64,000 nucleotides of DNA from NCBI GenBank assembly GCA_004321745.1, contig SGYO01000001.1:54563-118562 (forward strand), written 5' to 3'. Source of the DNA: a bacterium. Its GTDB lineage: Bacteria > Fidelibacterota > Marinisomatia > Marinisomatales > UBA1611. A program made the position numbers and the translations under genes. The first letter of the stretch is position 1. Each line of letters begins with the position of its first letter. Of this stretch, positions 47,115 through 59,648 are shown piece after piece. Below the pieces are notes generated by a model, which saw only the letters and a program-made list of their open reading frames with translations, searched no databases and was not told the origin of the DNA.

Positions 47115-48368
47115 CTATTCGAAGCGAAGAGATTCGATTGGATCTAGCTGCGCTGCTTTCCAAGCTGGATAGATACCAAAGCCAATTCCAATCACAGAGC
47201 AAACTACTAAACCAATTATTGCCCAATCTATTGGGATGACCGCTGGTATATTAAATATAAAAGAAACAATATTCCCCGCGCCTACTCCAAAAACTATGCC
47301 TGCAATACCACCAAATTCACTTAAAAATACTGCTTCCATCAAAAATTGAGTTAAGATATCTTGCTTTGTAGCACCAATAGCTTTTCTGATACCTATCTCT
47401 TTTATTCTTTCGGTAACAGAAACTAGCATTATATTCATAATTCCGATACCTGCAACAACTAAAGCAATTACACTAACTAAAAGTGCAAATACTTTTATTC
47501 CACTTGTAAACCCCGACAACGTTTCAATCATTTCATTACTAGTGACAATCTCAAAATCATTTTCTTCTCCAGGTCCTACTTTCCGTACTGACCTCATTAC
47601 ACCAATTGCTTCTTGCCTAGTTTTTTCATATTCCAACTCTGATGATGCCTCTATATTTATACTTAATGATGTCCACTTATTAGAAAATTTTTTTAAAAAA
47701 TTCGTAATTGGAATTGCAATATAATTATCTTGGCTTTGCCCAAATGCCTCACCCTTTTTTTCAGCTACACCGATTACAGTGTAGTCTAATCCATTCAGCT
47801 GTATCTTTTTTGATAGAGGGTTTTCAAAAGGGAAAAGCCTATCAACCACGTCCATTCCTAAAACACATACATTCCTGGAATATCTAACATCATCTGGAGC
47901 AATGTTTCTACCATCTGCTATGAAGGTTTTAAATATTCTTATACTACCCTCATCTCCTCCAAAAAGCTCAACATAGTTATTTACTTTTTTATCCCTATAC
48001 TTTACATCTCTTATTGAGCTTCCCTCACTTACACTAACAAGAGCAGGAAGCTTTGCTCTTTCTTTTAATTTTTTATATTGACTGTAATCAATATTTTTTC
48101 TATTTCTATATTTTTTATCACGCCTACCAATTTGTATTTCAGGATACTTTTGAATCACAAATGTATTTGCGGCAAAAACGTTCAGCCCCGAAGCCACAGA
48201 TGATTCTAAAGTCCTAATTGCTGTCATTACACCTATTACAGAAAATACACCTATGCTTATTCCAAGCAGCGTTAAAGATGATCTAAGCTTATTTTGCCGA
48301 ATGGCATCAATTGCCATGTAGAAACTTTCTTTAAGAATGTTTTTTAAATTTCTAGAAAGCATTTTCAT
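47115..48368 (-). CDS. ABC transporter permease (MacB/FtsX family)
   Basis: LRSSLTLLGISIG, GIGIMNIMLVSVTERIKEIGIRKAIGA, LDPIESLRFE. Confidence 0.95.
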   Translation of the reverse strand: MKMLSRNLKNILKESFYMAIDAIRQNKLRSSLTLLGISIGVFSVIGVMTAIRTLESSVASGLNVFAANTFVIQKYPEIQIGRRDKKYRNRKNIDYSQYKKLKERAKLPALVSVSEGSSIRDVKYRDKKVNNYVELFGGDEGSIRIFKTFIADGRNIAPDDVRYSRNVCVLGMDVVDRLFPFENPLSKKIQLNGLDYTVIGVAEKKGEAFGQSQDNYIAIPITNFLKKFSNKWTSLSINIEASSELEYEKTRQEAIGVMRSVRKVGPGEENDFEIVTSNEMIETLSGFTSGIKVFALLVSVIALVVAGIGIMNIMLVSVTERIKEIGIRKAIGATKQDILTQFLMEAVFLSEFGGIAGIVFGVGAGNIVSFIFNIPAVIPIDWAIIGLVVCSVIGIGFGIYPAWKAAQLDPIESLRFE

Positions 48369-49576
48369 TCATACCGAAGTGAATCAATTGGGTCAAGTTT
48401 TGATGCTTTGTAAGCAGGTATAAAACCGGATAGAACTCCAACGAACATACTGATAAATATAGAGAACACTGAAAGCGCTAAAGGAAGAGTAGAAGGGAAA
48501 AATTGGTTTATCACTAGACTAACAGCATATGCAAAACCCAAGCCTGCAATACCAGCAAAAAAGCATATCGTTACAGCTTCCATCAGAAATTGCCCAAGTA
48601 TCATACCGTTGGTCGCTCCAATAGCTTTTCTAACGCCTATCTCTCTTGTCCTTTCTTTAACAGTTACAAACATTATGTTCATAATACCAATACCGCCTAC
48701 TATAAGAGAAAGCAAGGTGATGAAATAACCAGTTCCGCCTATTGCTAGTTTTAATTTGTTATATTGCGATTCAAATGCTTTTGTCTGATTTATAGCAAAA
48801 TCATTTTTTTGACTTGGTTTTAAACCTCTTATCTGCCGCATTACACCTGAAATTTCATCTAAGCCTTCCTCAATTTTATCCTCCGGAATCTTCACACTTA
48901 AACGCATCCAACCTCTTTTAGAAAAAATTCTTTTATAAGCACCCAAAGGTAATATTGCCTGATTATCAACACTAAAAAGACCTAAGAATTTGCCCTGCTT
49001 TTCTAAAACCCCTATTACTCTAAACTTTACATTATCAATTTTAATATACTTACCAATAGGCTCTTCAAATCCAAAAAATGCTTCTTTTATACCATCGCCA
49101 ATAACCGTGACTCTCGAACCATTCCTGTCTTCGCTTTGTGAGAAAAATCTTCCTTGCTGAATGTCTGTGCTGATAGTTTCCATATACTCTTCATTTGTCC
49201 CAAATATTTCAGTCCGTGTCTCTTTGTCATCAAAAGAAAGAGATGCACCTCTTTGCATGACTGGCGAGACAGCTAGAGCATATTTGGATAGATTTTTTAT
49301 CTGATTAACATACTCTGACCTCATTCTAGGTCTATTTTTTACTTCCCACCATTCCATATCACTAAACCACTCGTACCTGCTAACATACAATATATCTTTA
49401 CCCAACCAGGACATACTGCTTTCAAATGAACGGTCTAATCCAGAAATGAGTGTGCCCATTAGCGTAACCGAAAAAACCCCTATAATAATTCCCAGAGCAG
49501 TAAGTAGCGATTTAATTTTATTTGCAAAAACCGCAATTAAAGAAATTTTTAAATTTTCAAAAAAAAGTGAGAACAT
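48365..49576 (-). CDS. ABC transporter permease (MacB/FtsX family), second paralog
   Basis: GGIGIMNIMFVTVKERTREIGVRKAIGA, LDPIDSLRYE. Confidence 0.95.
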   Translation of the reverse strand: MFSLFFENLKISLIAVFANKIKSLLTALGIIIGVFSVTLMGTLISGLDRSFESSMSWLGKDILYVSRYEWFSDMEWWEVKNRPRMRSEYVNQIKNLSKYALAVSPVMQRGASLSFDDKETRTEIFGTNEEYMETISTDIQQGRFFSQSEDRNGSRVTVIGDGIKEAFFGFEEPIGKYIKIDNVKFRVIGVLEKQGKFLGLFSVDNQAILPLGAYKRIFSKRGWMRLSVKIPEDKIEEGLDEISGVMRQIRGLKPSQKNDFAINQTKAFESQYNKLKLAIGGTGYFITLLSLIVGGIGIMNIMFVTVKERTREIGVRKAIGATNGMILGQFLMEAVTICFFAGIAGLGFAYAVSLVINQFFPSTLPLALSVFSIFISMFVGVLSGFIPAYKASKLDPIDSLRYE

Positions 49577-50262
49577 TACTTTTTAACTGGTTCATCAGAA
49601 ACTACCTTACCATCTAATAATCGTACTATGCGATTAGAATATTTAGCAATATCATCTTCGTGAGTAACAAGTATTATTGTATTCCCTGACCTATGTAATT
49701 CATCAAAAATTTTCATTATTTCATGCCCACTTTTTGAGTCAAGATTCCCAGTTGGCTCATCTGCTAATATTATTGAAGGCTCGTTTACTAAAGCACGAGC
49801 TATTGCAACACGCTGCCTTTGTCCTCCAGATAATTCATTGGGGCGATGATGCATTCTATCTTCTAGTCCAACACTAATAAGCGCATTCGATGCCATTTCA
49901 AGCCGCTTCTCTTTCTTAATATTCGCATATACTAATGGAATCTCAACATTATGTAGTGCACTTGCTTTTGGTAGTAGATTAAATGTTTGAAAAACAAACC
50001 CAATTTTTCTGTTTCTAATTGAGGCAAGTTGGCTATCATCCATTATATGAACTTTTTCACCTTCAAATTCATACAATCCAGATGATGGGCTGTCTAAACA
50101 CCCTATCATATTCATCATAGTAGATTTTCCAGAGCCGGAGGGGCCCATAATTGATAGGTATTCATTATTGTTTATAGAAAGGTCTACTCCATCAAGAGCG
50201 CGTACTTCCTCTCCACCCACATTGTAAATTTTGTAGATGCTCTTTAAACTAATTAATTCCAA
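49576..50262 (-). CDS. ABC transporter ATP-binding protein (LolD/MacB type)
   Basis: [33 protein letters not shown]. Confidence 0.96.
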
Positions 50263-50297
50263 CGTAGATTAAAATTCTTTATCTATAAGAAAATTCA

Positions 50298-51545
50298 TTA
50301 ATATGAACTCGATTCTATTTTAAAAGAAACTTTCATACCGTGCTGTAACTCTTTACTTAAAACGCGATATCTTCCAGTAACAATAATATCACCTAAATCT
50401 ACGCCTGTGTTTACAGCATAATAATTTTCACTAGATAATCCAGTATCTACAGGTTTTACAATAGCATACTTCTCACCTTCAGCTGTTTCTTTTCCATTAA
50501 AATTATCAACTAGAATGAACACAACATCGATACCTTCTTTAGCATTTGAATAATTGCTCTCACTATCATCACCATTCTTTTTATCTTCTTCGCCCAACTC
50601 TTCAAAATTTTTAGGCCTTGACACTAGAGATTGAATGGGGATTGATAAAGTATTTTTTATTGTTTCTGAAATGATATTAACAGTACTACTCATTCCTGGG
50701 CGTATTTTATGAGGAGGTTTAAGAACCTTAATCTTCACTTTAAAATTTGTAACTTGCTGTTGACTACCCATGTTCAGATTTTGGGCAGTATGAGCTATCT
50801 CGCTAACTAATCCGTAAAAAAGTGTGTCAGGGAATGCATCAATTTCAATTTCAGTTGTATCTCCGACATCGATTGTGACGACATCGTTCTCATTTACATC
50901 AACCAAAACTTCCATATGGTTTAAATCAGCAATTGTCATTAAAACTCCAGGATTAAACATCCCGCCTAATGCCATTTCTCCTTCTTCTTTTGTAAGACTT
51001 GTTACAATACCATACTTAGGTGCAACTAACTTTGTTTTTGATAGTTCATCTTCTCTTGACAGTAAAGCTGCATTAGCCTGATCAACCTGACTTAAAGCTA
51101 ATTCGTAGGACGCTTCAATCTGCTCAATCTCTTGCTTTGAAATAAGTTTTTGCTCAAATAATTGTTTTGTCCTTTCAAGCTGTGAAGTAACATTTTTCAA
51201 ATTCGCTTTAGAAGATTTTACCTGTGAAAGAGCTTGATCATAAGCAGCTTGATATTGTTTTTTATCTATGCTAATAAGATGCTGACCTGGTTTTACGGTG
51301 TCACCCTCGATTACAGTTATCTTAGTTATCCAACCAGAGACCATTGAAGTAATTTGGACTTCCTCTTCTGGCTGAATAATACCGCTTGCGTTAACTTTAT
51401 GAATAACGTCTCTTTTTACAACCTGTTCAGCAGTGACAAAAAGATTGTCATCTTCTTTTAAAAATTTTGTATAGCCACCAATGATAACTAAACAAATGAT
51501 TATCATTGTAATCCAAAACGTTTTCTTCTTTATCATTTCTACCAT
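50298..51545 (-). CDS. Efflux periplasmic adaptor (MacA-like membrane fusion protein)
   Basis: N-terminal anchor, VIEGDTVKPGQ lipoyl half-motif, coiled-coil hairpin, IRPGMS. Confidence 0.93.
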   Translation of the reverse strand: MVEMIKKKTFWITMIIICLVIIGGYTKFLKEDDNLFVTAEQVVKRDVIHKVNASGIIQPEEEVQITSMVSGWITKITVIEGDTVKPGQHLISIDKKQYQAAYDQALSQVKSSKANLKNVTSQLERTKQLFEQKLISKQEIEQIEASYELALSQVDQANAALLSREDELSKTKLVAPKYGIVTSLTKEEGEMALGGMFNPGVLMTIADLNHMEVLVDVNENDVVTIDVGDTTEIEIDAFPDTLFYGLVSEIAHTAQNLNMGSQQQVTNFKVKIKVLKPPHKIRPGMSSTVNIISETIKNTLSIPIQSLVSRPKNFEELGEEDKKNGDDSESNYSNAKEGIDVVFILVDNFNGKETAEGEKYAIVKPVDTGLSSENYYAVNTGVDLGDIIVTGRYRVLSKELQHGMKVSFKIESSSY

Positions 51546-52888
51546 TATTGCTCTTCTTTATTTTGATATTCTAAATCTAAGACACCAAGAATAGCCTTAA
51601 GGTTCATCTCCTCCACCCTAGCATCATGAATAATATTAATTAAGCTAGAATTTGATCGGATCAAAGAAACTTGTGCATCTAATACCTCAAGTATCGTTGC
51701 TGAACCAACACTGTATTTTTCTTGCACAAGTTTTAAATCCTCCTCTGCAGACAAAACGACTTCCTGATTAATTGGGATTATTTCAGCATAGTTTAAAATT
51801 GATTTTCTAATTAGTTCAATTTGTACTCTTAGGTCATTTATGTTAGAAATATAGTTATTTTCAGATTTTTGCTGCTCTATTTTAGCTCTTTGTTGTGCAG
51901 ATGAAAGTGAGTTCCCAGAGTATAACGGAAGAGTAACCCCCATGTTTACTCCAAAACGCCAATCATCTTTAAACGCTTCTTTTAACTCTTCACTATTATC
52001 TCCGTTTGCTGAATAATCTAAAGATGCAAATATAGATGGCGATCTCATACCTTTAGCGATTTTTACTTGAAGTTTATTTAACTGAATTCGTGATTGTTGA
52101 ATTAATATATTGGGATTTTGTTCTTTTAACAATGTTAGTGCTTCTGCACTAGTTGGTATAGATGTTGGAGACCATTCTTTCGATCTAGCCTGTATGGACT
52201 GTCCAAAATCTATCATGCCCATATCGTTAAATAATTGTCTTCTAGATGCCTCTAATGAAGTTTCTCTATTAAGAAGTTCAACTCTTGCTTGCCCAACAGA
52301 GACTTTGGCTTTCAAAAAATCTGTTTTACTAACCGAACCAAGCTCGAACTGTTTTTGGACTAAATCAATTTGTTTTTGCGATAAAATTAAATTTTCTTTT
52401 GCCACATCTAATAACTCTTGAGATTTTAAAAGAGAATAGTATGATCTTGTAACGTTTTGAATAACCAAAATCTTTGTATTTCTTTCTCGAAGTTTTGAAA
52501 TCTCTAAGTTTATTTTTGCTTGCTTAATTGCATTAACAGATTGTCCTCCATTATATATAGATTTATTAATTGACAACCCAGCAGACATATAACTTGATTC
52601 ACCGCTACTTATTGTATCAATCTCAAGATTAACAAGATCAGGAACAATACTCTCTTGATTTGGATATTTTGTTTTACCACCATTTGTAGAAAAACTAACT
52701 GAAGGCAGCACACCGCTGTAAGAACCAAGTACCTGTTTGGCTGCAGACTGCACATCAAGATCAGCTGAAACCAAAGTTCTTTTTCTTTCTAATGCAATCT
52801 CAATACATTCTGGAAGATCATAAATTTGAGCATTACAAATAGAAAAAAAGTATATAATGAACTGAAATGTGATAAAGTGTTTTTTCAT
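51545..52888 (-). CDS. TolC family outer membrane protein
   Basis: Signal peptide; duplicated OEP repeats (FELGSVSKTD, YSVGSATILEVLDAQ). Confidence 0.93.
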   Translation of the reverse strand: MKKHFITFQFIIYFFSICNAQIYDLPECIEIALERKRTLVSADLDVQSAAKQVLGSYSGVLPSVSFSTNGGKTKYPNQESIVPDLVNLEIDTISSGESSYMSAGLSINKSIYNGGQSVNAIKQAKINLEISKLRERNTKILVIQNVTRSYYSLLKSQELLDVAKENLILSQKQIDLVQKQFELGSVSKTDFLKAKVSVGQARVELLNRETSLEASRRQLFNDMGMIDFGQSIQARSKEWSPTSIPTSAEALTLLKEQNPNILIQQSRIQLNKLQVKIAKGMRSPSIFASLDYSANGDNSEELKEAFKDDWRFGVNMGVTLPLYSGNSLSSAQQRAKIEQQKSENNYISNINDLRVQIELIRKSILNYAEIIPINQEVVLSAEEDLKLVQEKYSVGSATILEVLDAQVSLIRSNSSLINIIHDARVEEMNLKAILGVLDLEYQNKEEQ

Positions 52889-52937: not shown

Positions 52938-53016
52938 CTCAATTTTAATCTTTAATAATATAAATTACTTTGATTAAAAAATTTAAACAGTAAGATTAAG
53001 AAAAAGTTCCTTCAGC

Positions 53017-54264
53017 TTATGAAGGCTTTTTTATCCAATCAGCATTATACATATCGACAAACGCAGGAGCTATGATACTAGTTTCTAAATTATTTGAAAT
53101 TGTATAAAAAATACCAATATCCCCTTGATCAGGCCCTAGTTTCCTTCCATTATTTTGAGTCTTACCATACCACTTCCCTAAGATAACTAATTCAAACTCT
53201 ATGAATTGATTAACCGTTTTATCAAATGTTGCACTTCCTAAAACTTGGGTTTTTATTCCATGATCTAACTTATGATTTGGAGTCCAATCATTCTCACCAA
53301 GTAACCATCCTCCTATTGCTACAGCATTAGCACTTCCACTAATGCTAAAAGATAGCATGGATTTTGTAGAGCTTGTAACCTCTAAACTTAATTTTGAAAA
53401 CTTAATTTCTTCTGGGGCAAAAGGTAAAGTTTGCCCTCTAACATTATCTACGAAATGAAACCTGAATAACCTTTCTTTTATTAATTCTGGACACTCCTGA
53501 ATACTGCCGACAACTTGGTTTTTTGGAAGCCAAAGTAAAGCTTCCTCTTTATTAAACCATATGTGGTCCATATTCCACCTATCACCTCTGTTATCAAAAT
53601 TTGGCGGGTCTGATAACAAATCAGACTTTGCTCCTTTTAATATCAAACCATCAACCGGATAGCTATCCTCCCAACGATGCTTAATTTTTTTGGTAAAATC
53701 TTCAGGGAGCGATTTTTGAGTTGCAGGAAGCATATCCCATTTTTTTAAACCCTCTTTAATAATCTCTAAAACAACATCCGGATTAAGTGAATTAACTGAA
53801 CTTAATAGTTGGCCGCTGGGACTCAGTACATATATACCTTGTCTAGAACCACCCTTTTTTCGATAGTGCCCCTTGTCTGCAATAGATTGAAACATCAAAG
53901 CATCTTCATCATTGGCGCCTTGTAAACGCCAAACTTCATCTGTTGAAGCCACAAAATTTTTTGCGATGTCAATTACTCTCGAATCTGACCAAACAGACCT
54001 CCGGCCCGCTGCTCCGTTATTTCATGTGCACCCTAAAGGATGCCCATTCATAACCCATAAAAGAAGTGGTTTATTAAATTTATCTGCGTCAACTAGTCCA
54101 TCATAGAAAGTAGTCCTCCAAGAGATTTGAGCCCATGCAAGCTCTTTCTCAGTAGGTTTAATAAAGTCTTTCCACATAGTGTAATTAATGCTTGTAAGAG
54201 AAAATTCCTTTTCATTACCTGAACAGCTTAAAAAAATTATAATAATAAATAATATTTTATTCAA
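53017..54264 (-). CDS. Putative selenoprotein: thioredoxin-like-fold lipoprotein with C-T-U motif (415 aa, Sec81)
   Basis: Track ORFs 54022-54264 and 53017-53952 are one frame separated only by TGA at 54024-54022. Readthrough gives KPLLLWVMNGHPLGCT-U-NNGAAGRRSVWSDSRVIDIAKNFVASTDEVW. Lipobox FLSC; SECIS-like hairpin follows. Confidence 0.8.
53992..54010 (-). promoter_or_regulatory. Candidate bacterial SECIS element
   Basis: mRNA AGCGGGCC-GGA-GGUCUGUU (8 bp including G-U pairs); stem starts 11 nt and loop 19 nt after UGA; a GC-rich island in AT-rich DNA. Confidence 0.7.
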
Positions 54265-54347: not shown

Positions 54348-55958
54348 ATGAATATATATAAATTAATACTTAATTGTACTTTTATATGCTTCTTTGTCAT
54401 TTCTAATCATTCGTGCACAACAAATAAAAGTTATATTTCGGATGAAACATCTTTTTTAGAAGAGATTTCAATAAAAGAAATCCAAAGCGGATATCAAAAT
54501 AATAGGTATACAGTTAACGAAATAGTATCGGCTTACATTGACAGAATAAATTCAATAGATCAATCAGGTCCTAATCTTAATTCAGTATTAACTGTCAATC
54601 CTGATGCATTGACAATTGCAGATTCATTAGACAAGATTCTTCAAAATGAAAAAATAATTAAAAGTCCGCTGTTTGGTATCCCAGTACTGCTTAAAGACAA
54701 CATAGACACGCACGATAAAATGCCTACAACCGCTGGTAGCAGAATACTCCAAAATGCTTTTCCTGTAAGAGATAGTTGGGTGGCAAAAAAATTAAGAGAT
54801 GCTGGCGCTGTTATAATTGGGAAAAGTAATTTAAGTGAGTGGGCAAACTATAGGGCCTCATACTCTAGCAGTGGCTGGAGCGGTTTAGGAGGACAAACAA
54901 AAAATCCATATGTTCTAGATCGCAACCCATGTGGATCTAGCTCAGGCTCAGCAGTTGCTGTTTCAGCCAATTTATGTGCTATAGCAATTGGAACTGAGAC
55001 TTGGGGATCAATAATGTGCCCCTCCAATGCAAATGGTATTGTAGGTATAAAACCAACTGTGGGTTTATGGAGTAGAGCCGGTATCATCCCAATAAGCTAC
55101 ACACAAGACACTGCAGGTCCCATGTCTAGAAATGTTGAAGACGCTGCTGTAATGCTAGGTGCACTTACTGGAGTTGACGATAATGATGATAAAACAAAAG
55201 TAAGTAAAAATAATTCTTTTAAAGACTATACCCAATTTTTGAAAAAAGAAGGTCTCCAGGGTAAAAGAATTGGATATGTTAAAACCATGAATGGCAAAAA
55301 TCATAGATTAGATTTGTTAATGGAGAACACAATCAAAGACCTTAAAAAAGGTGGAGCTGAAATAATTGAAATAAATGATATTTTTCAAAAAATCGATAAC
55401 AAAAAGTCGCCTCAAGAATACGCTGTTGAAATAATGGCTCATGAATTTAAAGATGGCCTGAAAAAATATTTTACTACCTCTGGTGTTGACAACCATGTAA
55501 AAGACCTAGAGGATGCAATAAATCAAACTTTATTAGATAGTATCGAAATGATGTATTTTAATCTTGATAGAATGAAAAACGCGCAATCAAAAGAAAGTCT
55601 AATAGAATCAACATCCTATCAGGAAGCAGTAAAGCATATGAAAACACTTACCGGTGAGCTTGGCATAGATAAAGTTATGAAAAAGCATGACCTAGATGCG
55701 TTCGTATCACCAACAGGAAGCCCAGCTTGGAAAACTGACCTGATTAATGGAGACAAATACTATATTTCAACCACTGTATTTGCTGCCCTGTCTGGATATC
55801 CAAATATTAATGTTCCTATGGGTTTTATTGATAATGTTCCAGTTGGGGTATCATTTTTTGGAACTAAATGGAGCGAACCCACATTAATTGAAATCGCCTA
55901 TGCTTATGAACAACGAACAATTCATAGGAAATCACCAAAATACATTCCTACTGATTAA
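54348..55958 (+). CDS. Amidase-signature family enzyme, probable lipoprotein
   Basis: LLKDNIDT, GKSNLSEWAN, CGSSSGSA, GTETWGSI (Lys-cisSer-Ser triad). Confidence 0.94.
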   Translation: MNIYKLILNCTFICFFVISNHSCTTNKSYISDETSFLEEISIKEIQSGYQNNRYTVNEIVSAYIDRINSIDQSGPNLNSVLTVNPDALTIADSLDKILQNEKIIKSPLFGIPVLLKDNIDTHDKMPTTAGSRILQNAFPVRDSWVAKKLRDAGAVIIGKSNLSEWANYRASYSSSGWSGLGGQTKNPYVLDRNPCGSSSGSAVAVSANLCAIAIGTETWGSIMCPSNANGIVGIKPTVGLWSRAGIIPISYTQDTAGPMSRNVEDAAVMLGALTGVDDNDDKTKVSKNNSFKDYTQFLKKEGLQGKRIGYVKTMNGKNHRLDLLMENTIKDLKKGGAEIIEINDIFQKIDNKKSPQEYAVEIMAHEFKDGLKKYFTTSGVDNHVKDLEDAINQTLLDSIEMMYFNLDRMKNAQSKESLIESTSYQEAVKHMKTLTGELGIDKVMKKHDLDAFVSPTGSPAWKTDLINGDKYYISTTVFAALSGYPNINVPMGFIDNVPVGVSFFGTKWSEPTLIEIAYAYEQRTIHRKSPKYIPTD

Positions 55959-55978
55959 GTCTGTGCTTATGTAAAAAA

Positions 55979-56674
55979 TTATATTTCTGCTGGTTTTAGT
56001 AAATAATTTTGAATGTAAATAAAAAGAACAACTAAAACTACTGAAAAAACTTGCACCATTATTATATACGTTGGCCATTCACCCATTAGAAATGGGCTAA
56101 TTGAGTTTGGCATCACTGTTAAAAACATATAATTACTATCTAGTACATAATTGACTATTGTTATTAACCCAACAATAATATTTGTATAGATCACCACTTG
56201 CAAGATTGATCTGTAATCCATTCGCATATCGTATTTAATCATCATCCATAAAACAGCAAATATTAAAGCAGCGTGATATCCCTGACTATAAAAGAAAAAT
56301 ATTCTAAGCTCAAATAAGTCACCATCAGGTGTCAGAATAGCATTTGTAGCTCCCACAAAACCCCAATAAAAAATCAAATTAAATATAGTTTGATTTCGAT
56401 ACATCAAATTAAAAGCCGCTAAATAAACTCCGATGCTACAAAGTTGTAAAGGGAGATCTTTAGTTATAGAATAATAACCGGTAAAAATTCTGACTAAATC
56501 TTCGGATAGATCTAAAAATATCATTAGAACAGATAGAACAATTAAAAATGTTTTGCTATCATCTTTTATTCCAATTTTATCATTATATCCCAAAAATATA
56601 ATAAAAAGAAAAAGAATGACTATTATCGAAACGATATGGTCTAAACTAAAAACTTCAAATGTATAAGGCAGCAT
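55979..56674 (-). CDS. YwaF/TIGR02206 (TMEM164-like) integral membrane protein
   Basis: LPLQLC, NAILTPD, H in GYHAAL, SNYMFL, WPTYI. Confidence 0.85.
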   Translation of the reverse strand: MLPYTFEVFSLDHIVSIIVILFLFIIFLGYNDKIGIKDDSKTFLIVLSVLMIFLDLSEDLVRIFTGYYSITKDLPLQLCSIGVYLAAFNLMYRNQTIFNLIFYWGFVGATNAILTPDGDLFELRIFFFYSQGYHAALIFAVLWMMIKYDMRMDYRSILQVVIYTNIIVGLITIVNYVLDSNYMFLTVMPNSISPFLMGEWPTYIIMVQVFSVVLVVLFIYIQNYLLKPAEI

Positions 56675-56714
56675 TATAAACGACGATTCATTAACTGATT
56701 AAAACAAATCAAAT

Positions 56715-57218
56715 TTAAAAGGAAAGAATGTCAAATGGTTTATCTCTATGAGCCATAACAGTTTTCTGTTTACCATGAATGTTAAAATTCATAATGTTTA
56801 ATTGATCCTCAAAAGATGAAAATAAAAACCTATTTTCAGAAATAATTTTTTTTATTTTTTTATCTACATCTAAAATTTCTAAATAAAGCCAGACGATATC
56901 AGTTTCAAATTCTTTACCAATCCAACTTAAATCACACTCTTTTTCATTTATAGATAAAAATATCGTTTTAATAATGTAATTAAAAATTAAACTATCTACA
57001 TCTTTCTTATTATCATCATTATCAATGATGATATTTAAATCATTAATTTGATTTATTGTTTTTTCTAAGTCATTTGCGAAAACTCTCATAGTTATTTCAA
57101 TAGACCTCGAATTATCATTAAACTTTAGAGAAATTATCGAAGAATGAAATGGATGAGCGAATAAACAACCAAAAAAGAAGATGCCACATACTACTAAATG
57201 TTTAATTTTATAATTCAT
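56715..57218 (-). CDS. DUF6702-like exported protein
   Basis: Signal peptide, then A-HPFHSS…IEITMRVFANDLE…WLYLE…QLNIM; start set at MNYKIK. Confidence 0.78.
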   Translation of the reverse strand: MNYKIKHLVVCGIFFFGCLFAHPFHSSIISLKFNDNSRSIEITMRVFANDLEKTINQINDLNIIIDNDDNKKDVDSLIFNYIIKTIFLSINEKECDLSWIGKEFETDIVWLYLEILDVDKKIKKIISENRFLFSSFEDQLNIMNFNIHGKQKTVMAHRDKPFDILSF

Positions 57219-57281
57219 TTTTAAATTTAAATTATCTAAAAAAAAAGACATTCAATATTTTTTTAAAAATCATGTTAATTA

Positions 57282-59648
57282 ATGTATAAAAACCATCTAA
57301 AAGTATTTTTTGCAATTATAACTGCAACAGCACTTGCTCAAATTGAAGACAAGTTCAAACAATTAGATCAAGAAATAGCAACACCTAATTCATATAGAAC
57401 TGCAGCAGGCTATCCTGGACATGAGTATTGGCAAAATAGGGCTGATTATACTATAGATGTAAAACTAGATGATGAAAATCAAACTATAAATGGATTTGAA
57501 ACAATAACATATACAAATAACTCACCAGATAATCTTAATTATTTATGGGTGCAACTTGATCAAAATATTCGAGCAAAGGATTCCGACTCGTATAAAATCT
57601 CTACTGGGAAAATGAGAAGCAAATTAGATTTTTCTTCTATGAAGCCTGGATATATATATGGAGATAAAGATGCATTTGATGTCTTAAATGACTTCGATGG
57701 TGGCTTCAATATTGAAGAAGTTGTCACCATAGATGGAAGAAAACTTAATTATACAATAAACAAAACAATGATGAGAATCGACCTGGACAAACCTTTAAGG
57801 TCGAAATCAAAAACATCGATTTCCATACGTTGGAACTATAAAGTGCAAGATAGGATCTTTATGGGTGGTAGGTCTGGATATGAGTTTTTTGAAACAGATA
57901 GTAATTATTTATATACGATCTGTCAGTGGTTTCCAAGAATGGCAATGTACAATGATGTATATGGTTGGCAGAACAAACAATTCTTAGGAAGGGGAGAATT
58001 CACATTGGATTTCGGAGATTATGATGTTCGGATAACCGTTCCAGCAGATCATATAGTTGCATCAACAGGCGAACTGCAAAACATGATGGAAGTGCTAACA
58101 AAAGAACAGATCGATAGATTTAAAAAATCAAGATCTTCAAGTAGTCCTATGATTATCATATCGCAGGATGAAGCAATCATAAATGAAAAATCTAGAAGTA
58201 AAAAAGTTAAGACATGGCGTTATAAAGCCAAGAACGTTAGAGATTTTGCTTTTACTAGTTCCAGAAAATTTATCTGGGATGCAATGGGTGTCAAACTAAG
58301 AGACCGGACTGTAATGGCAATGTCATATTACCCTAAGGAGGCTAACCCCTTATATGAAAGGTACTCAACTAAAGCTGTGGCCCACACGCTAAATGTATAT
58401 TCAAAATATACATTTGATTATCCTTACCCGGTTGCAATTTCTGTAGAAGCAGCTAATGGGATGGAATACCCTATGATTTGTTTTAATTATGGTAGGCCTC
58501 AAAAAGACGGTACTTACTCTGAAAGAATTAAATATGGAATGATAAGTGTAATCATTCATGAGGTTGGACACAATTATTTCCCTATGATCGTGAATTCGGA
58601 TGAACGGCAATGGACATGGATGGATGAGGGGTTAAACTCATACCTACAGTTTTTGACAGAACAAGAATGGGACAGAGATTACCCGAGTAGGCGTGGCCCA
58701 GCTAAAAATATTGTGAATTATATGAAAAGTGATAAAAAAAACCTTATGCCGATAATGACCAATTCTGAATCAATCTACCAATTTGGTAATAATGCTTATG
58801 GCAAACCGGCTACAGCTTTGAACATCTTAAGAGAAACTATAGTAGGCAGGGAATTATTCGATTTCGCATTTAAAGAATATTCAAAAACATGGATGTTCAA
58901 ACACCCAACACCAAGTGATTTTTTCAGAATTCTTGAAAATGCTAGCGCTGTAGATTTAGATTGGTTTTGGCGAGGATGGTTTTATTCAACAGACCCTGTT
59001 GATATTTCAATCGATGAAGTAAAATGGTATACCTTAGATACTAGAAACCCAGAAATCGAATTTCCTCTAAAAAAACTAGATGAGGAAAATGAACCTAATC
59101 AATCTTGGGAAGAAAAAAACCGTATAGGAATCCAAGAAACAATCGTTGAAATAGATGAAGAGGCAAATGATTTTTATAACAAATACGATCCTTATGAAGT
59201 CACAATATTAGATATGGAAGATTTTATTAAATACAGAGATAGTTCTGTAGTAGAACCTCAGGAAAAAAGAATTTATAATTCAAACTTAAACTACTATGAA
59301 ATAAAATTTTCTAATGTTGGAGGACTTGTTATGCCAATAATACTTGAACTTCAGTATGAAGACTCCACTAATTATATCATCAGAATACCTGCAGAAATAT
59401 GGAGAAAAAATAGAGATCAAATCATAAAAGTATTTGCAACAAAAAAACTTGTAAAATCTTTTAACCTAGACCCCCAACTTGAAACAGCAGATATAAACCT
59501 TATAAATAATAATTGGCCTAGAAAAACGATAAAATCAAAATTTGAACTTTATAAAAATAAAAAAAATAACAGATGGAAAAACTTTAAAGAAAATAAAATG
59601 CAGCGGTATAGCAGGTTAAAAAAGATGAAGGAATCAATAAAAGAGTGA
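57282..59648 (+). CDS. M1 family aminopeptidase
   Basis: YWQNRADY, GMEYPM, HEVGHN-x-DEG (HEXXH…E), NAYGKP. Confidence 0.95.
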   Translation: MYKNHLKVFFAIITATALAQIEDKFKQLDQEIATPNSYRTAAGYPGHEYWQNRADYTIDVKLDDENQTINGFETITYTNNSPDNLNYLWVQLDQNIRAKDSDSYKISTGKMRSKLDFSSMKPGYIYGDKDAFDVLNDFDGGFNIEEVVTIDGRKLNYTINKTMMRIDLDKPLRSKSKTSISIRWNYKVQDRIFMGGRSGYEFFETDSNYLYTICQWFPRMAMYNDVYGWQNKQFLGRGEFTLDFGDYDVRITVPADHIVASTGELQNMMEVLTKEQIDRFKKSRSSSSPMIIISQDEAIINEKSRSKKVKTWRYKAKNVRDFAFTSSRKFIWDAMGVKLRDRTVMAMSYYPKEANPLYERYSTKAVAHTLNVYSKYTFDYPYPVAISVEAANGMEYPMICFNYGRPQKDGTYSERIKYGMISVIIHEVGHNYFPMIVNSDERQWTWMDEGLNSYLQFLTEQEWDRDYPSRRGPAKNIVNYMKSDKKNLMPIMTNSESIYQFGNNAYGKPATALNILRETIVGRELFDFAFKEYSKTWMFKHPTPSDFFRILENASAVDLDWFWRGWFYSTDPVDISIDEVKWYTLDTRNPEIEFPLKKLDEENEPNQSWEEKNRIGIQETIVEIDEEANDFYNKYDPYEVTILDMEDFIKYRDSSVVEPQEKRIYNSNLNYYEIKFSNVGGLVMPIILELQYEDSTNYIIRIPAEIWRKNRDQIIKVFATKKLVKSFNLDPQLETADINLINNNWPRKTIKSKFELYKNKKNNRWKNFKENKMQRYSRLKKMKESIKE

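Follow-up and report, generated by a model that had tools for sequence, protein, structure and literature searches.

Two hypothetical open reading frames (ORFs) that follow one another on the minus strand of a marinisomatal contig (SGYO01000001.1, assembly GCA_004321745.1) raise the question of whether they are two genes or one gene read through an internal UGA. They lie in a window of 64,000 nucleotides (nt), the whole stretch that was analysed, and all coordinates given here are positions in that window. The ORF listing holds an ORF of 80 amino acids (aa) at 54022..54264 (-), which has a TTG start and ends ...GHPLGCT-TGA, and a 311-aa ORF at 53017..53952 (-), in the identical frame, for which the start is GTG at 53952. 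If the TGA at 54024-54022 (-) is read as selenocysteine (Sec, U), the frame from 54264 to 53017 (-) runs uninterrupted through 415 residues, of which only residue 81 is U, 334 further codons being open after the TGA. On this translation, and on the full-length conservation with one TGA in relatives, the whole gene is 53017..54264 (-), 415 codons and a stop, running from TTG at 54264-54262 to TAA at 53019-53017. A preliminary description of this DNA had proposed one frame split at a TGA, with 23 codons between the ORFs that are all sense; both are confirmed by the translation, and the 23 codons left out by the gene caller read NNGAAGRRSVWSDSRVIDIAKNF, as written there. The two hypothetical ORFs are one real selenoprotein gene concealed by annotation, and it is very probable that 54264-53017 (-) is a single gene whose selenoprotein product is exported and, in Marinimicrobia, carries a lipid anchor.

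An in-frame UGA kept across two phyla

The in-frame UGA at codon 81 is kept as UGA in both Marinimicrobia and Planctomycetota. At the codon aligned to U81, TGA is present in 110 out of 110 loci from these phyla, at 39-100% identity, the loci being drawn from two overlapping sources that amount to 86 distinct 72-nt regions; the motif around the TGA is MNGHPLGCTU[NG]NG. The gene was found in 11 of 41 related genomes, with exactly one TGA in 10/10 matches spanning residue 81. In a sample of 401 genomes of the phylum there are 32 carriers, all from one order, and one TGA in 31/31 site-spanning matches. Scanning species-representative genomes gave 191 relatives, the best 80 of which come from Neomarinimicrobiota and many Planctomycetota lineages. 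For Planctomycetota, a sample of 301 genomes contains 95 carriers and 146 matches, with no more than six paralogues per genome; by a count from the match table, 139 of these matches span the site and 135 of the 139 have at least one TGA, and TGA occupies the homologous codon in 30/30 further loci checked from this sample.

Conservation of the coding sequence extends to each side of this codon. The ratio of non-synonymous to synonymous substitution rates (dN/dS) was taken separately for the 59 codons on each side of the TGA and for the remainder of the gene; it lies within 0.03-0.16 throughout, and both flanks of the UGA are under purifying selection. Cysteine homologues align at the Sec position, being six of 12 full-length non-Sec homologues from a search of representative sequences, while S, R, A, or D is present at the site in the other six. 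Three of the four Planctomycetota copies lacking a stop were fetched and have TGT (Cys, in the motif C-N-C; L192), Ser, and Val. A conserved in-frame UGA with coding conservation on each side, and Cys homologues aligned at the Sec, are the features of a Sec-decoded selenoprotein. Contigs from RNA libraries of close relatives, in three studies, bridge the TGA, which demonstrates presence in RNA libraries, not Sec insertion; these contigs cover parts of the gene, and the uncovered parts are uninformative.

It could be argued that the TGA is a true stop, leaving either two genes, for an 80-aa lipoprotein and a protein of ~311 aa, or one gene killed by a nonsense mutation. Gene callers do annotate the locus as two ORFs everywhere, and neither selD nor tRNA-Sec was found in the source assembly. 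Such a stop is nevertheless difficult to reconcile with TGA in 110/110 and 30/30 homologous loci from two phyla, with the low dN/dS on each side of it, and with the Cys homologues, which are single, uninterrupted proteins. The first start after the TGA is GTG 53952, and its use would remove the conserved GRRSVWSD…NFV block; the starts of the called fragments vary as well, being M or V at different residues. A true stop at this position is exceedingly improbable. Other signs that might have spoken for it were also looked for. Among the homologous loci, no TAA or TAG was seen at the Sec position and no independent conserved start was seen for the second half. Every close relative examined has TGA, non-Cys sense codons being confined to divergent members of the family.

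Splitting of the gene by gene callers, as had been suggested, is borne out in public protein collections, where the family is present almost only as post-TGA fragments. The 120 listed matches are all 234-334 aa in length and cover 56-80% of the query. In the representative search, which returned 1,432 clusters at 50% identity (E <= 1e-3), 135 of the 150 listed representatives start at query residue 83 or later.

Tandem paralogues are seen in Planctomycetota (G623:C37:8991-11907, L194, and G511:C42:50043-52290). In the first of these genomes a TGA-less copy adjoins a TGA copy, and the TGA copy of L194 has its Cys at U-4 (HPCAVVU), not at U-2. A 'TAG' flagged as an internal stop in some Planctomycetota matches was rejected as such; it is the genuine end of the gene, beyond which the alignment continues.

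Decoding of the UGA

The bacterial selenocysteine insertion sequence (bSECIS) is a stem-loop just 3' of the UGA, placed at a characteristic spacing and carrying a G in its apical loop. A SECIS-like hairpin, GCGGGCC-GGA-GGUCUGU, is present at 53993..54009 (-). Its 7-base-pair stem has its first nucleotide 13 nt past the UGA and the hairpin extends to 29 nt; the loop, GGA, begins with G and is GGN in homologues, the element being weaker in divergent paralogues. Covariation was assessed in a gap-free alignment of 86 sequences, with the stem in columns 22-28 and 32-38. The compensatory changes that the preliminary description had suggested looking for are found in four stem pairs (14 cells with two-sided changes), and 92% of the 602 stem cells are paired, a share that falls to 27-54% on sliding the 3' partners. 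For four of five covariation measures the observed values are attained by 0/500 shuffles. Read as codons, the hairpin-forming sequence is GCG GGC CGG AGG UCU GU, and GCG, GGC, and CGG account for 8.5%, 15%, and 2.4% of the Ala, Gly, and Arg codons in this genome of 33% GC. The GC-richest 30 nt of the gene begin 6 nt past the TGA and include the hairpin. A structural constraint on the hairpin is supported by both the covariation and the use of rare codons.

Absence of the Sec machinery from genomes carrying the gene, which would have spoken against Sec insertion, is not the case. In the source assembly (G000), selA and selB are adjacent on one contig (C6), with scores over the cut-offs. Among 25 related genomes, selD is present in 21 and tRNA-Sec in 18, and a genome of the same genus (G002), which has a 95%-identical copy of the gene, contains all four genes, selA, selB, selD, and that for tRNA-Sec. 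Two large Planctomycetota carriers also have selA. In this lineage selD is itself a selenoprotein gene, with one in-frame TGA in 21/21 above-cut-off matches from the 25 relatives G002-G033 (e.g. L187, L188).

Decoding of the UGA as a standard residue, Trp, Cys, or Gly, by a reassigned code or by SelB-independent readthrough, is the other way in which the frame could be continuous. A database entry (P0158) with W at the Sec position agrees with this. Set against it, TGA is an ordinary stop in the source genome, where it terminates 138 of the 759 long ORFs, and a reassigned genetic code was rejected for this reason. Only one TGA interrupts the gene, and homologues hold Cys at that site; selA and selB are intact in the source genome, Sec-type selD and tRNA-Sec are present in relatives, and the conserved hairpin stands at SECIS spacing. 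Insertion of a residue other than Sec is very improbable. The entry P0158 (170 aa) is out of register after its W and is apparently a gene call with TGA as W on a locus like L024.

Domains, export, and proposed function

The N-terminal half of the protein was compared by hhalign with a Thioredoxin_7 alignment made from 30 PF13899 matches in related genomes. The two profiles match over 132 columns with 98.0% probability (E 2.6e-13), whereas the controls gave 1.0% for the C-terminal half, 0.08% for a reversed alignment, and no more than 1.7% for ten column shuffles. As judged by this profile comparison, residues ~36-180 (53725..54159, -) form a divergent Thioredoxin_7-type fold. Alignment register places Sec81 on the first Cys of the CxxC and Gly84 on the second. 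Cys79 stands two residues before Sec81 (C-x-U), after a five-residue insertion (NGHPL), and the active-site codons Cys79-Thr80-Sec81 are TGC ACA TGA (54022..54030, -), as identified from the TGA in 110/110 and 30/30 loci and from the Cys homologues. In place of the CxxC, UxxC, or CxxU expected at the start of helix 1, there would thus be an unusual active site, with Sec at the nucleophile position and the partner Cys moved to -2. The thioredoxin fold with a C-x-U site that had been read from the sequence therefore stands on the profile-profile comparison.

Thioredoxin_7 (PF13899) includes the C-terminal domain of DsbD, the N-termini of DUF255/YyaL, and AGR/TXNDC12. It has in common with the family the pattern W..(x)GL..A...KPLL, an active-site loop, and then a VF/VW-x-D..V....FV block, as well as an extracytoplasmic or lumenal setting. 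The family differs from it in the NGHPL insertion before the active site, in having C-x-U-x-x-G for C-x-x-C, and in an extra C-terminal domain of ~220 aa. Below the gathering threshold, the Pfam Thioredoxin_7 model matches 4/63 family members, with a best E of 0.059, and sequence and profile searches of the PDB gave noise, or AGR3 at E 0.47. Other Thioredoxin_7 ORFs with one in-frame TGA occur in related genomes (G034:C46:4599-4829, G033:C99:1445-1687, and G029:C10:24987-25232) and are probably further selenoproteins of the Thioredoxin_7 type.

The C-terminal domain (53020..53679, -) was delimited by its conserved columns and by null family scans. Its ~220 residues are strongly conserved among homologues, with the motifs RWNxDxxWF, RFHLVDNVRGQT, and FELVAxGxRWGxTxxNGR, and have no family match in Pfam or NCBIfam scans; the hhalign probability against Thioredoxin_7 is the 1.0% given above. 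Some members are fused to other domains (P0125; L091:2420-4915, which is P0271; P0145; P0213; P0206; P0186). The domains involved are an EF-hand, an M28-type peptidase, a Ser/Thr kinase with Kelch repeats, an FGE-sulfatase with planctomycete cytochrome/PSD, a PQQ/BamB propeller, and Exo_endo_phos. These partners are heterogeneous, giving no single functional hint, and some of the fusions may be read-through gene calls.

At the N-terminus, the sequence pattern indicates a signal peptide with a lipobox-like end (MNKILFIIIIFLS-C14) at 54223..54264 (-). The N-terminus, (M)NKILFIIIIFLSC, fits the lipobox pattern, with FLS-C14 set against [LVI][ASTVI][GAS]C. A crude regular expression finds a lipobox-like pattern in 28/34 distinct Marinimicrobia homologues and 7/51 from Planctomycetota, and a hydrophobic N-terminal stretch is present in 33/34 and 50/51, respectively. 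These patterns support export of the family and a lipid anchor in Marinimicrobia, as had been proposed.

A function can be suggested from these features. SelB with Sec-tRNA(Sec) would recognise the hairpin and selenocysteine would be inserted at residue 81; the protein would then be exported by the general secretory pathway and, in Marinimicrobia, lipidated at Cys14. Outside the cytoplasm it may act as a thiol/selenol oxidoreductase, cycling between the selenolate/thiol and a selenenylsulfide of Cys79 and Sec81, while the substrate would be selected and bound by the C-terminal ~220 aa. Electrons would plausibly come from a membrane reductase of the DsbD type, and the source genome holds one 643-aa ORF with a Thioredoxin_7 domain that is DsbD-type.

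A number of observations weigh against an exported redox selenoprotein decoded in this way, and several of them concern the Sec machinery. In the source assembly (92% complete, 22 tRNA genes), tRNA-Sec was not found, nor was selD, the sole weak match to which is PurM. These 22 are all that ARAGORN finds in the 1.75 Mb and 40 contigs of the assembly, and the best match to RF01852, at C38:80286-80373 with 46.5 bits, is a tRNA-Ser with anticodon UGA. Co-occurrence with selA is not discriminating because selA is present in 304/401 genomes of the phylum sample, compared with 28/32 carriers, the four carriers without it being assemblies that are 64-88% complete.

Other points concern the hairpin. 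A single-sequence fold of 71 nt has an energy of -15.6 kcal/mol (z = -0.45), and 60/200 shuffles fold as well; RNAalifold recovers no more than five pairs, at a weak -1.31 kcal/mol. In 21 new divergent Planctomycetota regions, a stem in fixed register has at least six of seven pairs in 11, four to five in seven, and three or fewer in three. An Rfam search of 53850-54150 gave noise only, with no family match, and part of the hairpin's conservation is at the protein level, since a conserved peptide is encoded by the same codons. Since the folding energy is not distinctive, support for the hairpin rests on homologue comparison and codon usage. The GC-rich hairpin of the preliminary description is therefore real in its position and covariation, but its single-sequence stability is not unusual.

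The remaining points concern the protein and its relatives. Pfam and NCBIfam scans of the window protein (P0001) returned no significant model at E <= 1. Neither Cys nor Sec is at the site in 6/12 full-length non-Sec homologues, and the residue is Ser or Val in two Planctomycetota copies that lack the stop. Because some homologues are without Cys or Sec at this position, redox activity at residue 81, as far as it can be predicted from these residues, is not common to every member of the family. An extra in-frame TAA is found at the position of residue 307 in a copy from a metagenome-assembled genome (L043, the same as L073; genome G316). When the neighbours of 80 loci were clustered, conserved neighbourhoods were confined to close lineages and no partner was shared between phyla, and the function, reductant, and substrate suggested above are all inferred. 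In L043, conserved sequence continues beyond the extra TAA, and this stop reflects a nonsense mutation or else an error in the assembly.

The selenoprotein gene stands alone. A consensus scan, the only basis for this feature, places a terminator-like hairpin followed by a T-run at 53009..53025 (-), overlapping the stop codon. Upstream of the start, a weak promoter-like site with 10/12 consensus matches is at 54373..54400 (-), the scan as a whole having given four such sites where 7.9 are expected from shuffles. Downstream, at 47115-52888 (-), is a five-gene efflux operon of OEP/TolC, an HlyD-type adaptor, an ABC ATPase, and two MacB/FtsX permeases. Upstream, at 54348-59648, are an amidase (+, divergent), a TMEM164-family protein (-), DUF6702 (-), and an M1 peptidase (+), and these genes have no visible link to the selenoprotein.

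Known selenoprotein families and SELENON

A 2026 inventory (PMC13188914) covers 119 prokaryotic selenoprotein families. It includes four C-x-U families and one Thioredoxin_7/PDZ family. The C-x-U families in its Table 1 are thioredoxin-like Sec.1 (PF13192), UshA-like (NF041198), rhodanese form 3 (NF041203), and ferredoxin-thioredoxin reductase (NF041072). These share the spacing with the present family, but their models do not match the window protein at E <= 1 and their domain architectures differ. The Thioredoxin_7/PDZ selenoprotein (NF041199) is likewise of the Thioredoxin_7 type, but has CxxU and a PDZ domain, and there is no NCBIfam match to it. In the 119-family table the family is not recognisable; the Pfam/NCBIfam scan, which gave noise only at E <= 1, covers those families with Pfam, TIGR, or NF models, not those listed only by cd or PTHR.

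No description of the family was found in the literature searched, as far as its accessible text goes; an entry for it may stand in Dataset S2 of PMC2398784 or among the Planctomycetes selenoprotein candidates of PMC4807772 (S9 Table). Within the same accessible text, no paper was found with the motif or linking such selenoproteins to Marinimicrobia or Planctomycetes. Cluster names are all 'hypothetical' or absent, and every naming source calls the family hypothetical. This is apparently a large family that has so far gone undescribed, and its earlier designation as a candidate undescribed family is consistent with the null Pfam/NCBIfam scans, with the 119-family table, and with the lack of its motif in the literature searched.

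A relationship to the eukaryotic selenoprotein N (SELENON) was also considered. In an ESM Atlas search with a Cys homologue (P0167), the eukaryotic 'Selenoprotein N' cluster came second, at 0.91 with 193/256 features shared. With the post-TGA fragment P0023 as the query, 'Selenoprotein N' is not in the top three, all of which are bacterial clusters. Profile and sequence searches of the PDB gave nothing relevant to SELENON. A search for longer homologues, of SELENON length, gave only two fused bacterial forms, and a homologue search from an 832-aa sequence, over the range 207-1456 aa, had only family members among the matches listed.

According to the accessible parts of the published accounts, SELENON has Sec462 of 590 residues in an SCUG motif (PMC12839072 for SCUG) and a thioredoxin domain in the lumen of the endoplasmic reticulum. 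Next to its UGA, on the 3' side, is a selenocysteine redefinition element (SRE), a hairpin over the codons G463-R469 of which it is said that it 'resembles the bacterial SECIS element'. On these accounts, both SELENON and the present family have Sec in a thioredoxin-like domain facing a non-cytosolic compartment, and both are found almost only in the Sec form. With an ungapped register on U, the Gly at U+1 of many Planctomycetota sequences (U-G-N-G) corresponds to G463 and the near-invariant Arg at U+7 to R469. The motifs are different, SELENON having its Cys at U-1 (SCUG) and the family at U-2 (GC-T-U-[NG]-N-G). SELENON is described as a membrane protein of type II that bears an EF-hand at its N-terminus, whereas the window protein has a signal peptide or lipobox, Sec81 of 415 residues, and no EF-hand; in the family an EF-hand is present in homologue P0125 only, at the C-terminus.

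The family may therefore be a genuine selenoprotein whose likeness to SELENON is convergent or generic to the thioredoxin fold, the family being a divergent bacterial offshoot of Thioredoxin_7, and the chances of this are judged slightly better than even. It would explain why the SELENON evidence is one embedding-based match from one Cys homologue, and why the three best Atlas clusters for P0023 are all bacterial. The difference between GCTU and SCUG and the placement of Sec, near the N-terminus here and at residue 462 of 590 in SELENON, agree with it, as does the 2026 review of prokaryotic selenoproteins, which leaves SELENON out of the families that it gives as common to prokaryotes and eukaryotes. 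It accounts less readily for the Atlas values of 0.91 and 193/256 features, which are within the same-family range reported for the tool, and for the presence of an EF-hand in one bacterial homologue cluster, as in SELENON. Three further likenesses weigh against it: Sec predominates in both families, going by the accessible algal data for SELENON, each protein is turned to a compartment that is topologically outside the cytoplasm, and in each, by the accounts available, an RNA hairpin follows the UGA directly on its 3' side.

That the family, as exported Sec-containing oxidoreductases of thioredoxin type, is instead the bacterial counterpart, and possibly the ancestor, of SELENON, with the bacterial SECIS hairpin on the codons next to the UGA surviving in SELENON mRNA as the SRE, is a tentative suggestion and rather unlikely at present. 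This link, which the preliminary description had raised, is not proven, being a lead that rests on one ESM Atlas match.

For the bacteria concerned, the finding means that a large family, present in 95/301 sampled Planctomycetota species and 32/401 genomes of the phylum to which the window belongs, has been obscured by annotation. Its members would join a thioredoxin-fold Sec site to a conserved domain of unknown fold, placed outside the cytoplasm. If the link to SELENON were true, a human disease gene would descend from bacteria and its SRE would be a relic of bacterial Sec decoding, which would give an evolutionary explanation for the SRE hairpin. SELENON is a human myopathy protein with debated substrates, and its chemistry could then also be approached in bacteria, as a tractable model.

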